Part shown: in pieces, positions 2,969 through 7,545 of the stretch
Layout of the letters: every line of letters starts with the position of its first letter
Position numbering within the stretch: position 1 is the stretch's first letter
Virus record (IMG/VR): IMGVR_UViG_2693429524_000008
Strand: one strand, 5' to 3'
Length of the DNA stretch: 7,545 bases
Source of the DNA: a virus
Taxonomy: Duplodnaviria; Heunggongvirae; Uroviricota; Caudoviricetes
Notes under the pieces: generated by a model
The model's input: the letters and a program-made list of their open reading frames with translations, nothing else
What the model was told of the DNA's origin: nothing
The model's database searches: none
Program-made: the position numbers and the translations under genes

Positions 2969-3331
2969 TTAATGACCTGCTGCGCGGAGTTTTCCGTCAG
3001 GCTCACCGGCAAGAGTCAGTAATTGTCCCTGGTCTTCCTGCAGAATAGTCAGGCGACCACCGCGATTGACATACATCGGTGTTTCGGTGGTGTCTTCTTC
3101 GGAAATTTTCCCGCGGTTAGTCGGGCGAACATATGAGAGTTTGTGTTTGATTTTCACACGGTTCTCATCAAATGGTTCGATTTCCAGGTTGAGCGAGACC
3201 TTACCTTTGGTTTTCGTGTTCATCACACCGGAAGCGACTTCACTGAGAACTGCGCCGATTTTGGTTTCAAATACGCCGCCGTCCAGCTCCCCGATAAATG
3301 CCTGCACATCAGTACTGCGTTCGCTAGCCAT
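2969..3331 (-). CDS. yfdP: YfdP-like small prophage protein, 120 aa (the longer ORF to 3517 is probably upstream read-through)
   Basis: Start placed at ATG 3329..3331 (MASERSTDVQAFIGELDGG...) because AGGAG lies 7 nt upstream; the 62 codons above it are Cys/Arg/His-rich and not protein-like. Gene order P then Q then R on the minus strand matches the yfdP-yfdQ-yfdR order recalled for E. coli K-12 CPS-53. Confidence 0.5.
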   Translation of the reverse strand: MASERSTDVQAFIGELDGGVFETKIGAVLSEVASGVMNTKTKGKVSLNLEIEPFDENRVKIKHKLSYVRPTNRGKISEEDTTETPMYVNRGGRLTILQEDQGQLLTLAGEPDGKLRAAGH

Positions 3332-3379
3332 TTTGCTGCTCCTCATCATATCGACCCTGCAAGGTCGGTTAGTTTCTCC

Positions 3380-3468
3380 ACAAAACAGAGAAGAACACCT
3401 GCGGTGGCAGCCGCCCGGATGGATTGGGTTATGAGCCCGTCGTCCGGTGATGCTCTTCTCTGTTTTGT
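3380..3468. repeat. Long-range inverted repeat: 15-bp perfect arms (3380..3394 and 3454..3468) separated by 59 nt, in the untranslated leader upstream of the yfdP-like gene
   Basis: 3381..3394 CAAAACAGAGAAGA is the exact reverse complement of 3454..3467, with one further A/T pair at 3380/3468. Confidence 0.5.
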
Positions 3469-3946
3469 AAAAAGAGCGGTACCAGCCGGAAGCAAGTGTA
3501 CAAACTGGTACCGCCAAAGCAGTGGCTGTTGTGGTGACCGGTGCTGATCTCCGGCTTGCGGTTATTTCAGACTCTCACGGGCGTTTAATTGCCCCGCCGA
3601 ACAGCTCTTTTCCGCAATAGCTGCAATGTCTTTCGCGCATCAGTCTGCGCATTCACCACAACGCTGAGAGCACTTAGCCAGTTACGGCACCACACTTTGT
3701 CGCGGTTCCATAAATGCCCTCATCGTTGCACCCTGGTCTCTTCCCAGGCGTCAAACCGAATCGCCACGCTGGTTAGGCGTCTTATCAGCATCATCATTGA
3801 CTTGCACATTCCGGCTACCTGGTTTGTTTGCTCGAGCAAGGAGTGGATTGTCCCCTTTAACGTCACCAGACCGCTAACGACGCATGTGCCATACGCCGTG
3901 TTACAACCAAATTTTGTTTTAATCTTGCCTGTGTTATGTTTCTTTT

Positions 3947-3980
3947 AGATACATTGTGTATCTCATGGATACATTGTCAA
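3947..3980 (-). promoter_or_regulatory. Candidate leftward early promoter (pL-like) with overlapping operator: minus-strand -35 TTGACA (3975..3980), 16-nt spacer, -10 CACAAT (3953..3958); perfect 17-bp palindrome AGATACA-TTG-TGTATCT (3947..3963) plus a second GATACATTG half-site copy (3968..3976)
   Basis: Consensus -35 hexamer and palindrome seen directly; the -10 is weak (lacks the first T). Position immediately downstream of the repressor terminator and upstream of the leftward gene block fits an oL/pL arrangement. Confidence 0.4.
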
Positions 3981-4019: not shown

Positions 4020-4694
4020 TTAGGCCTTTATTGTGTATCTTCTTGGTTTTCCCGAGAAAATCACTGTACCAATTATAGAGCAATTACCGTTAATCTTAAT
4101 GTAAGGCTCAGGCCAGTTTGGGTTTAATGCTTTGAGATAACGCTGTGTTCCATCTTCTATCAATCGCTTGAAGGTGGTTTCGCCTGTATCGTGCATCAAT
4201 GCAATAACGTCGTCACCGTGGCAGGCAGGGACTTCGGGATCAACAAAAATCATGTCTCCAGGGCGGTACTCATCAATCATTGAATCACCAATCACCCGCA
4301 AGATATAAGTCATTTCGCCACAGGGTACAGGGCAGGGATACGTTTCTGCTGTGCTCAAATCAACCTCAGAATAGCCAACTTCTTTCCATGCTCCGGCCTG
4401 TACCCATGATATGACAGGGACTAACGTTATTTGTTTGTTAGTGATTGAAACATCAGGTTTTTTTGTGATGTTCGTTGTCTGGTGTTCTTGATCAAGCCAT
4501 CCGACAGGCAGGTCGAAACATTTTTCGATGTGCCGTGCCATGCTGTCACCGATATTTTTAGTAGCGCCATCCCCCATAAACCTGCTGGTCTGGGTTGGCT
4601 CGCGATCAATCATGGTGGCAAAGGATGAATTTCCGCCAACACCATCTCTCAGTTTTCTGGCGTTAGACCGCCGGATGTCATGGATTGTTTTCAT
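4020..4694 (-). CDS. CI-like prophage repressor: N-terminal HTH domain plus C-terminal S24 (LexA/UmuD-like) autopeptidase domain, 224 aa
   Basis: C-terminal half carries the S24 signature: putative Ala-Gly cleavage site (VQAGAW), Ser nucleophile in VIGDSM and Lys in TFKRL. Divergently oriented to a Cro-like gene across an operator-bearing spacer. Confidence 0.8.
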   Translation of the reverse strand: MKTIHDIRRSNARKLRDGVGGNSSFATMIDREPTQTSRFMGDGATKNIGDSMARHIEKCFDLPVGWLDQEHQTTNITKKPDVSITNKQITLVPVISWVQAGAWKEVGYSEVDLSTAETYPCPVPCGEMTYILRVIGDSMIDEYRPGDMIFVDPEVPACHGDDVIALMHDTGETTFKRLIEDGTQRYLKALNPNWPEPYIKINGNCSIIGTVIFSGKPRRYTIKA

Positions 4695-5915: not shown

Positions 5916-5935
5916 AGGTCGGTCATGAGCACTAA
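5756..5935 (+). CDS. Small hypothetical protein, 59 codons, TTG start (absent from the ATG-only ORF track); alternatively the C-terminal part of a frameshifted gene that begins at 5577
   Basis: Protein-like translation [59 protein letters not shown]; strong Shine-Dalgarno AAGGAG (5742..5747) 8 nt upstream of TTG 5756; the stop (5933..5935) overlaps the next gene's start. Confidence 0.3.
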
Positions 5936-6263
5936 ATTAACCGGCTATGTATGGGATGGTTGCGCTGCATCAGGCATGAAATTATCCAGCGTGGCAATTA
6001 TGGCCCGCCTGGCTGATTTCAGTAATGACGAAGGTGTGTGCTGGCCATCAATTGAAACCATTGCCCGTCAGATTGGCGCGGGGATGAGTACCGTCAGAAC
6101 GGCTATCGCACGGCTGGAAGCAGAAGGCTGGTTAACGCGTAAGGCGCGTCGCCAGGGTAACCGCAATGCGTCGAATGTTTATCAGCTTAACGTTGCGAAG
6201 CTTCAGGCAGCGGCATTTTCTCAACTGTCAGATTCTGACCCGTCAAAATTTCTTACCTGCTGA
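5925..6263 (+). CDS. Winged-helix (HTH_36-like) replication-initiator-type N-terminal domain protein, 112 aa; possibly the 5' remnant of a longer O-like replication gene
   Basis: AGAGG Shine-Dalgarno 6 nt upstream of ATG 5925. Motif ...DEGVCWPSIETIARQIGAGMSTVRTAIARLEAEGWLTRKARRQGNRNASNVYQLN is typical of the HTH domain at the N-terminus of phage replication-initiation proteins. Followed by about 290 bp without a convincing ORF. Confidence 0.55.
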   Translation: MSTKLTGYVWDGCAASGMKLSSVAIMARLADFSNDEGVCWPSIETIARQIGAGMSTVRTAIARLEAEGWLTRKARRQGNRNASNVYQLNVAKLQAAAFSQLSDSDPSKFLTC

Positions 6264-6555: not shown

Positions 6556-7437
6556 ATGAAAAATACTGTAAAAATAAACAGTATTGATTTAATCAACGCT
6601 GATTGCCTGCATTTTATTCAGTCCCTGCCTGATGATTCCATTGACCTGATTGTTACCGATCCGCCTTACTTCAAGGTGAAACCTAACGGTTGGGACAATC
6701 AGTGGAAAGGGGACGAAGATTACCTTAAGTGGCTGGACCACTGTCTGGCCCAGTTCTGGCGGGTGTTAAAACCTGCCGGAAGCCTTTACCTGTTCTGTGG
6801 GCATCGCCTGGCATCTGATATTGAGATCATGATGCGTGAACGTTTCAACGTGCTTAACCATATCATCTGGGCGAAGCCGTCCGGACGTTGGAATGGGTGT
6901 AATAAAGAAAGTCTGCGCGCATATTTTCCTGCCACAGAGCGCGTTCTGTTTGCTGAACATTACCAGGGGCCATATCGCGGCAAAAGTGACGGCTATGCAG
7001 CAAAAGAAAGGGAACTCAAACAGCACATAATGGCACCGCTGATATCGTATTTCAGGGATGCTCGTGCCGAACTGGGTATAACGGCAAAACAAATTGCCGA
7101 AGCCACAGGTAAGAAAAATATGGTTTCCCACTGGTTTGGTGCCAGTCAGTGGCAGTTGCCGAATGAGGCTGACTATCGGAAGTTACAGGCACTGTTTTCC
7201 CGTATAGCGGCAGAGAAGTTTCAGGAACAACAACTGGAACAACCACACCACCAGCTGGTGGCATCTTATGATTCACTGAATCGCAAATATTCTGAATTGC
7301 TGGATGAGTTTAAATCTCTCCGGCGCTATTTCTCCGTATCAGTCTCCGTGCCTTATACCGATGTCTGGATGCATAAACCCGTTCAGTTCTACCCGGGTAA
7401 ACATCCGTGTGAGAAACCGGCGGATATGCTCAGGTGA
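6556..7437 (+). pseudogene. N6-adenine DNA methyltransferase (beta-class, phage Dam-like), 3'-truncated at the IS junction (methyltransferase-derived part 6556..7434)
   Basis: Catalytic motif IV, IVTDPPYF, near the N-terminus; the ORF ends ...YPGKHPCEKPADMLR-stop, six residues after the HP-x-x-KP motif that normally precedes the C-terminal AdoMet-binding motif (DPF-x-GSGTT type), which is missing. The TGA stop (7435..7437) is the first three bases of the IS terminal repeat. Confidence 0.75.
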
Positions 7438-7545
7438 ACCGCCCCGGGTTTCCTGGAGAGTGTTTTATCTGTGAACTCAGGCTGCCAGATCATCGTTTCC
7501 GATGGAAGCATAATAAGCTTTTTCTGCTTCTGCCGGAGGAGTATG
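7435..7545 (-). mobile_element. 3' terminal fragment of a second IS3-family (IS629/IS1203-like) copy in inverted orientation: right terminal inverted repeat starting TGAACC at 7435, transposase C-terminus on the minus strand (7477..7545)
   Basis: Exact reverse complement of 1..111; same reasoning as for the left-hand fragment. Confidence 0.6.

Follow-up and report, generated by a model that had tools for sequence, protein, structure and literature searches.

A covarying pseudoknotted RNA in the non-coding early-left leader of an N-less lambdoid prophage

The 7,545-nucleotide (nt) stretch of DNA analysed here (the window; IMG/VR virus record IMGVR_UViG_2693429524_000008) comes from an SfV/mEp460/cdtI-type lambdoid prophage of Escherichia coli, of which it represents the immunity and early region, and its positions 3332-3946, transcribed from the minus strand, are the leader of the early-left operon. 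The first element of this leader is a pseudoknotted RNA, which we call X and which together with the stalk that follows it spans about 240 nt (3899-3656). Judged from the comparison of related phages, X is a covarying structured RNA of a family absent from Rfam. In transcribed order it is followed by the stalk, a four-way-junction domain, a predicted intrinsic terminator (T1), a long hairpin (module C) and the ribosome-binding site of yfdP (Table 1). An initial annotation of the DNA had described a non-coding, N-less leader with an inverted repeat downstream of a pL-like promoter; the leader is real and so is the repeat, but the main element at 3899-3656 and the terminator at 3515-3467 had been overlooked. 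The arrangement is tentatively explained here as an early unit that operates with RNA only, where tandem terminators gate the genes from yfdP to int and are passed by means of an RNA-borne signal to host machinery; the best candidate for this signal is X.

Table 1. Elements of the early-left leader and its promoter, in window coordinates and in transcribed order
Element	Position	Strand	Description
pL-like promoter	3953..3980	-	sigma-70-like; TTGACA 3980-3975, 16-nt spacer, CACAAT 3958-3953 (promoter scan)
X core	3731..3899	-	pseudoknotted RNA of ~170 nt; covariance model R1 145.6 bits, E = 1e-39 (home-made model, E-value rough)
Stalk helix	3656..3731	-	closes variable insert 3' of X; also in minimum-free-energy fold; UGCAAC (3730-3725) pairs with GUUGUG (3662-3657), GAGGGCAUU (3721-3713) with AGUGCUCUC (3674-3666)
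Four-way-junction domain	3528..3662	-	135 nt; closed by GUUGUGGUGA (3662-3653) and UCACCACAAC (3537-3528), 10-bp perfect arms; -46 kcal/mol, z = -2.5
T1	3467..3515	-	predicted intrinsic terminator; 13-bp stem GGCGGUACCAGUU...GGCUGGUACCGCU, then CUUUUUAC; -21.2 kcal/mol, z = -4.7
Module C	3380..3468	-	long hairpin (the inverted repeat); likely second terminator; ends CUGUUUUGUGG; internal loop UCAUAACCCAAUC conserved
yfdP entry	3329..3367	-	small hairpin CGACCUUGCAGGGUCG (3367-3352), Shine-Dalgarno GAGGAG (3344-3339), start codon 3331-3329

In the window, helix H1 of X pairs 3898-3891 with 3885-3878 across the loop GGCAC, H2 (CUGG/CCAG) encloses a variable insert, and the near-invariant 19-mer GGUAGCCGGAAUGUGCAAG occupies 3819-3801. 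The pseudoknot is made by the loop of helix H5 (ACGC/GCGU, within 3780-3766), in which AACC is paired to a GGUU located in 3758-3750, and H6 (CCUGG-GAAGAGA-CCAGG) is found at 3748-3732. When viral contigs were scanned for exact occurrences of the 19-mer pattern GGTAGCCGGAATGTGCAAG, more than 120 loci were obtained and thinned to 49 representatives, and the structure, drawn by hand, was scored for covariation on 42 distinct sequences. With the partners as drawn, 97.3% of the cells are paired, against 22-42% when the partners are slid; 11 pairs vary on both sides, a count taken over related sequences and not one of independent events, and the observed score was reached by none of 500 shuffles. 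In H1 a G-C pair is replaced by A-U; H2 occurs as CCGG/CCGG, CUGG/CCAG and CCAC/GUGG, H5 as ACGA/UCGU, ACGC/GCGU, GGGA/UCCC and UUGA/UCAA, and H6 as CCUGG/CCAGG, CCUCG/CGAGG and GCCGG/CCGGC. The pseudoknot changes from loop CACC with GGUG to AACC with GGUU, and this change recurs in a separate lineage. The U-G and G-U pairs, seen in 42 of 42 and 23 of 42 sequences, fit the minus strand only. The leader as a whole also folds better than its shuffles, with z = -5.3 for the minus and z = -3.8 for the plus strand, and with its modules conserved and its stems covarying, the structured RNA that the initial annotation had suspected is indeed there.

The minus strand is closed, as had been noted: the longest open reading frame (ORF) with an ATG start within 3946..3333 has 29 codons (3809..3720), the next-longest have 25 and 13, and frames that start with GTG or TTG reach 36-49 amino acids and are not conserved. 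The plus-strand ORF 3589..3948 was rightly described as not protein-like, having a TTG start, 119 amino acids, no Pfam match and no RefSeq/PGAP annotation in near-identical genomes. A decayed gene, one of the candidate explanations offered at the outset, a small protein encoded by the 29-codon or the 119-amino-acid frame, or a repeat acting at the DNA level such as a miniature inverted-repeat transposable element, would agree with the presence of short ORFs, with the hypothetical proteins that some phage records place here, and with the 10-bp terminal inverted arms of the junction domain, which moves between phages. Yet the relatives carry indels that are not multiples of three inside the 29-codon frame, the lengths of the X core fill all three residue classes modulo 3 (12, 20 and 26), there is no Pfam match, and PGAP annotates nothing. 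X is non-coding, because its lengths fill all the residue classes and the indels break the frame. The compensatory pair changes and the strand-specific G-U pairs likewise speak against coding or repeat explanations. A protein gene stands at this position in none of the relatives, where conserved and covarying structure abounds instead, and gene decay is rejected; the whole group of explanations is hardly credible. An open frame running across X is uninformative as a coding signal, being frequent by chance in 150 GC-rich nt, and a leader peptide starting at the AUG after H6 was discarded, since this AUG is not conserved and the frames differ among relatives.

The near-invariance of the 19-mer might reflect the way in which the family was collected. 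Members were therefore fished again with an anchor consisting of H1 plus the junction, using one genome per species. This gave 56 matches, about half of them chance ones outside Enterobacterales, and the covariance model kept 23. The 19-mer is intact in 22 of these 23 members, found from a different anchor, and its invariance is therefore no artefact of the first search. All refished members are from Enterobacterales save one, a 1.7-kb contig labelled as a Bacillota metagenome-assembled genome.

Searches of Rfam 15 at E <= 1 with permissive filters gave no match in the leader, and at the same threshold nothing was found at X or the stalk in five other loci. The sole match at E <= 1 in the window is a weak one to STnc100 outside the leader (21 bits, gathering score 47), at 1908-2087 of the minus strand in the yfdQ-yfdR gap; phage Ayreon has an annotated terminator at the matching place. 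The prophage small RNAs Pas, AgvB, AsxR and STnc100 were discarded as identities of X, as they belong to the late region or have Rfam models that fail to match. A full-text literature search with the 19-mer returned a single unrelated paper, and in the literature, of which coverage was partial, no description of X was found.

Of 5,426 complete E. coli genomes 1,834, about a third, contain X, as do 588 plasmid records, and among the matches listed it overlaps no annotation except one hypothetical protein and one array of clustered regularly interspaced short palindromic repeats (CRISPR). A covarying pseudoknotted RNA of 170-240 nt that is common in E. coli genomes and P1-type plasmids is thus left with neither Rfam family nor annotation. 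E. coli K-12 carries no X, which is missing from its prophages e14 and CPS-53. A 32-nt spacer in a CRISPR array next to queE in E. coli 2012C-4502 (locus L197, 701-732) is 100% identical to X 3852-3883, or core positions 17-48, i.e., at least one natural host spacer matches the X RNA gene.

The loci fall into three classes. In class I the order is cro-like gene, repressor, promoter, X and early-left genes; the repressors of this class belong to at least four clusters unrelated to one another, and the genes downstream come in several different sets. In class II (Uetakevirus, phiV10-type) an operator-bearing promoter, X, a transfer RNA (tRNA) gene for Arg, T1, a hairpin, a further terminator (T2) and cargo lie between the terminase and portal genes. 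In class III (P1-like) the order is tRNA-Ile, X, a 14-codon upstream ORF and ban, within the C1-controlled ban operon. In P1 itself (locus L004, about 2760-2810) the 14-codon ORF lies between X and ban with its stop overlapping the ban start (UAAUG), which suggests translational coupling. Whatever the class, X lies on the sense strand inside a unit under repressor control and precedes the cargo, and in nearly all non-P1 loci it is placed 6-100 nt downstream of the repressor-controlled promoter. From this position it follows that X should be made immediately on infection or induction. Furthermore, X occurs in phages with unrelated proteomes, and a binding partner would therefore have to be encoded by the host. 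In 47 of 124 loci, among them P1 and phiV10-type phages, X directly adjoins true tRNAs. A Klebsiella prophage, Kp4866-6 (locus L195, 800-1700), has a divergent X (116 bits) flanked by two stalk units, and the insert of the second stalk contains two near-perfect tRNA T-arm hairpins (GGUUCGAUUCC).

When segments of the leader were compared with phage genomes by BLAST, each had its own set of relatives: 3912-3656 matches P1, P7, D6 and phiV10/TL-2011b-type phages at about 80%, 3675-3527 matches Klebsiella phages, and 3517-3333 matches SfIV, ST64B, LLS and phiNP. In 30 close relatives about 99% conservation is seen for X, T1, module C and the closing helices; the interior of 3658-3538, like the promoter/operator region, is swapped wholesale. 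By this comparison, the pattern of conservation and exchange is that of functional modules and not of decay.

The stalk has all nine of its nine pairs in most of 78 family members, and it varies in compensatory fashion (AAGAGC/GCUCUU, GAGCGC/GCGCUC), with NNN-GUUGUGG always next. Its GU-rich strand has alternative partners, either the stalk strand upstream or the domain-closing arm downstream, and in close relatives the identical closing helix surrounds two different interior haplotypes. In phiV10-type phages a true tRNA-Arg(UCU) lies exactly in the slot of the domain. Within the window, ARAGORN calls no tRNA or transfer-messenger RNA, and the Rfam tRNA model has no match at the domain. In the lytic Klebsiella phages ZCKP8 and IME207 stalk and domain occur without X, as the leader of tRNA genes. 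The stalk strand and domain of IME207 (locus L191, 2501-2648) are 96.6% identical to 3675-3527 of the window, and from this follows that a 150-nt RNA module was recently transferred between very different phages.

The 3' strand of the stalk resembles boxA and boxC. One may therefore consider the case where this strand (UGCUCUC...GUUGUGG) recruits NusB, NusE, NusA and NusG as in a ribosomal RNA (rRNA) leader, shielding the leader from Rho and aiding its folding, with X unrelated to the process. The order of a hairpin, UGCUCUY and a GU-rich strand that pairs with a trailer around structured RNA or tRNA is indeed shared with the boxB-boxA-boxC arrangement, and it mirrors the rRNA leader-trailer design (PMC10250234). 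Better boxA matches also occur in relatives, UGCUCUUAC in IME207 and UGCUCUUU in ZCKP8, both upstream of tRNA genes, and the mEp phages are, as a collection, described as Nus-dependent (PMC11893012). In the window, UGCUCUC (3672-3666) is followed by the hairpin GCGCA-GACUGA-UGCGC, which in relatives is replaced by a cassette or tRNA. However, the boxA consensus is not kept across the family: the window's GUGCUCUCAGCGUU departs from the rRNA consensus UGCUCUUUAACAA, the copy GCUCUCAGCGUU is a poor match to it, and other members have UGCGCUU. Moreover, the strand is base-paired here and covaries with its upstream partner (UGCUCU/AGAGCA vs UGCGCU/AGCGCA); it is therefore selected as a helix. Antitermination of the rRNA type also counters Rho-dependent termination much better than it counters intrinsic terminators, which likewise tells against this explanation, and we regard it as improbable.

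T1 has, in the modelled fold, the stable GC-rich hairpin followed by a U-tract on the transcribed strand that characterises an intrinsic terminator. Its loop has 15 nt, and a simple terminator scan, which takes loops of at most 8 nt, missed it. Hairpins with U-tract of the T1 type are found again in ST64B and in lambdoid and phiV10-type loci. From one locus to another, U-tract and stem base stay fixed and the middle of the stem covaries (ACCAG/CUGGU, GAUGG/CUAUC, GGCAG/CUGACC, UAUCC/GGAUA); ST64B has GUCGGCGUC/GACGCCGAC instead. Since hairpin and U-tract persist while the stem sequence varies, T1 is, on the evidence of these alignments, under selection.

Module C reaches with its 5' strand into the U-tract of T1, where that strand begins, and with its 3' strand to a U-run that immediately precedes the ribosome-binding site of yfdP. 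It contains the inverted repeat of the initial annotation, with perfect 15-nt arms (3380-3394 and 3454-3468) 59 nt apart, which is real but turns out to be the last module of a chain and not its main element. By arithmetic about 2e-4 such perfect 15-mer repeats are expected in 615 nt. The arms extend to 25 nt at 84% complementarity, and as RNA the module has a 23-bp stem of -49.3 kcal/mol, compared with -24.3 +/- 3.2 for shuffled sequences (z = -7.8). It is kept, with changes in the stem, in ST64B, LLS, phiNP, Kp4866-6, L022 and L089. T1 and module C thus form a tandem, with the start codon of yfdP about 50 nt further on, and a promoter scan of the minus strand between T1 and yfdP found no promoter-like site. 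In phiV10-type loci the place of module C is taken by another hairpin and the strong terminator T2 (GCCCGGUUCGCCGGGC plus seven U), separated by 3-5 nt from the Shine-Dalgarno sequence of the cargo genes, which vary. Uetakevirus loci have a hot spot behind T2, where at least four unrelated cargo genes are found. In phage Tyrion (locus L006, 3598-3662) the same cassette has an Rfam int-alpA match of 44 bits (gathering score 35.8) downstream of the cargo gene.

The absence of an N-like gene, also claimed initially, is borne out: the leader has no ORF where such a gene would lie, and among the ORFs of the window no antitermination protein was matched in PHROGs or Pfam. In the complete relative mEp460 the only annotated gene of antitermination type is a Q-like late regulator. 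For the related phage LLS and its phage group, too, the LLS authors noted that N is missing and suspected an RNA mechanism of the put type (PMC12315714).

The explanation preferred here assumes that when repressor leaves pL, RNA polymerase transcribes the modules of the leader in order, so that X would be made first, then the domain in the tRNA slot, and then T1 and module C, which would control entry into yfdP-yfdQ-yfdR...xis-int. It further assumes that a signal in the leader RNA, acting on conserved host machinery, lets the polymerase through, i.e., RNA-mediated antitermination analogous but not homologous to that of HK022 put. By inference, T1 and module C would terminate transcription in vivo, their read-through would be promoted actively, and the effector would be X and not the stalk. 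With no N-like protein and no promoter behind the gate, passage would have to rely on a signal in the leader RNA together with host machinery. In accordance with the scheme, X comes first in the transcript, the genes behind the terminators have no promoter of their own here, and phiV10-type cargo abuts T2 with only a Shine-Dalgarno sequence between.

Other observations weigh against such a gate, and several of them favour a different reading, where X and the domain in the tRNA slot are stable RNAs, excised by way of the stalk helices and acting in trans on a host factor, for instance as an early decoy or inhibitor, while the terminators simply end the cassette and the early-left genes live on leakage. 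T1 goes with the stalk and the domain and not with X: stalk, domain, T1 and module C are all present in ST64B, LLS and phiNP, which lack X, and P1 carries X but no T1. Some phiV10-type loci have a separate promoter for the cargo after the terminators, and X-tRNA-T1-T2 is there a self-contained RNA unit. The e14 prophage, with the same immunity region and promoter, has a short leader with neither cassette nor T1, and the terminator therefore travels with the RNA cassette and not with the operon. Each phage has a single X, which is absent from the pR operon (mEp460 carries no further copy anywhere, and the window likewise contains one), which means that the essential right operon manages without it. 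The neighbourhood of X and true tRNAs, and the lytic Klebsiella phages whose tRNA clusters are led by the same stalk and domain, also fit stable RNAs. Against that reading, many cargo genes and the whole yfdP-int operon lie behind two terminators without a promoter of their own, and X is almost always the first element transcribed. Stable, trans-acting RNAs are a close rival, only somewhat less likely than the gate.

Alternatively, X could be the aptamer of a ligand-sensing riboswitch that controls T1, as its pseudoknotted core and near-invariant junction nucleotides might suggest, and an 11-nt stretch (3611-3601) is able to pair with the 3' half and U-tract of T1. But X and T1 are more than 200 nt apart and separated by an entire domain or a tRNA, the two occur independently, and no Rfam riboswitch matches, all of which makes a riboswitch very unlikely.

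For antitermination by RNA the natural comparison is with put. The put RNA of HK022 acts in cis on RNA polymerase and is blocked by mutations in the zinc-binding domain of the beta' subunit. Like putL and putR of HK022 and the putL-like site of HK639 (the latter per annotation), the leader in the window has a structured RNA downstream of pL in an N-less lambdoid phage, with terminators next. In contrast, X with its 170-240 nt has a pseudoknot, whereas put has about 70 nt and two stem-loops; X occurs once per phage and not in the pR operon, whereas put is found downstream of both pL and pR; and X is found also in P1-like and Uetakevirus phages. A put covariance model (R2), built from HK022 putL, HK022 putR and HK639 putL, recovers putL and putR at 88 and 73 bits, but its best match in the window has 8 bits (E = 1.5) and lies in a coding region, with nothing in the leader. 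Conversely, when HK022 and HK639 were searched with the X model R1, no match came up, the put sites included. A put-like antitermination RNA, as first suggested, therefore holds as an analogy and fails as homology, and X as a put RNA was rejected for lack of matches in either direction. The likeness of H1 to put stem I (ACGGCG...CAUGCGUCG, common to the window and HK022 putL) was likewise set aside, as it is not kept in the X family and has no support from the models. HK022 put itself is a structured RNA of a pL leader that works without N and needs no phage protein (PMC9378689).

Compared with nutL and N of lambda, the leader has the same position between pL and the first early-left gene and contains a boxA-like string and hairpins, but an N-like gene is missing, the string is part of a helix that covaries, and no boxB-type hairpin is tied to a phage protein. 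In the late leader of lambda, the 6S RNA ends at tR' unless Q acts, and the untranslated leader transcript ending at an intrinsic terminator before the operon genes is a common trait; here, however, no Q-type protein or qut site is involved, and the leader is much longer and has independently conserved RNA modules. The tRNA cluster of T4 also encodes the stable RNAs C and D, to which no role has been assigned. These are, by description, similar non-tRNA structured RNAs co-transcribed with phage tRNAs, whereas the unit described here heads a protein-coding early operon.

The N-less lambdoid phages include SfV, ST64B, cdtI, mEp460, LLS and several Stx2c phages, and the leader provides elements (X, stalk, T1, module C) that can be mutated to test how early-left genes are expressed in them. 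That X is found in phages of three unrelated types implies that its host partner is conserved, and phage RNA may here influence transcription or RNA metabolism in a new manner. More speculatively, X would represent a new class of phage RNA that lambdoid, P1-like and phiV10-like phages have in common and that needs no phage protein to bind a conserved host machine. It could then be an early decoy against a host factor or defence, or a processive antiterminator of a second RNA-only type with an unrelated structure.

Upstream of the leader, two operator palindromes of the TGTATC-N6-GATACA type (3957-3974 and 3936-3953) overlap the pL-like promoter, from which transcription should start near 3946, and many related loci have a matching type of promoter, with X about 52 nt downstream of it. 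In phiV10-type phages the promoter before X overlaps another palindrome, TTACC-N5-GGTAA (locus L005, 2380-2420, and similar Uetakevirus loci), which also overlaps a second promoter before some Uetakevirus cargo genes. A further conserved leader element of about 65 nt with two hairpins (ACAGGCAGGACGCCCACGAAGUAGCCGCCCGG...CCGGGAUGAUUCG) was seen in e14 of E. coli K-12 (locus L131, 6086-6259), in the leaders of L193 and L196 and upstream of X in L089. In e14, ST64B, phiNP and some loci with X it comes after the pL-type promoter, and it has no match to the put covariance model.

In window coordinates from left to right, the minus strand carries an integrase fragment, an excisionase-like gene, yfdT, yfdS, yfdR, yfdQ, yfdP and the leader. 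The gene yfdP is annotated in relatives, and its ATG makes 3332 the first base of the leader. On the same strand a LexA-like repressor gene lies at 4020-4694, with its terminator directly before the early-left promoter, and the plus strand carries cro-like, cII-like and O-like genes. A perfect inverted repeat of 111 nt (1-111 and 7435-7545) brackets the entire 7.3-kb prophage fragment; the integrase ORF (72-530) and a methylase ORF (6556-7437) both enter it and finish in an identical peptide, and the repeats look like two inverted insertion-sequence ends that truncate the prophage. The O-like replication gene (5925-6263) is cut to 112 amino acids, compared with 313 in the near-identical strain A0 34/86, and the right arm of the prophage is therefore degraded.

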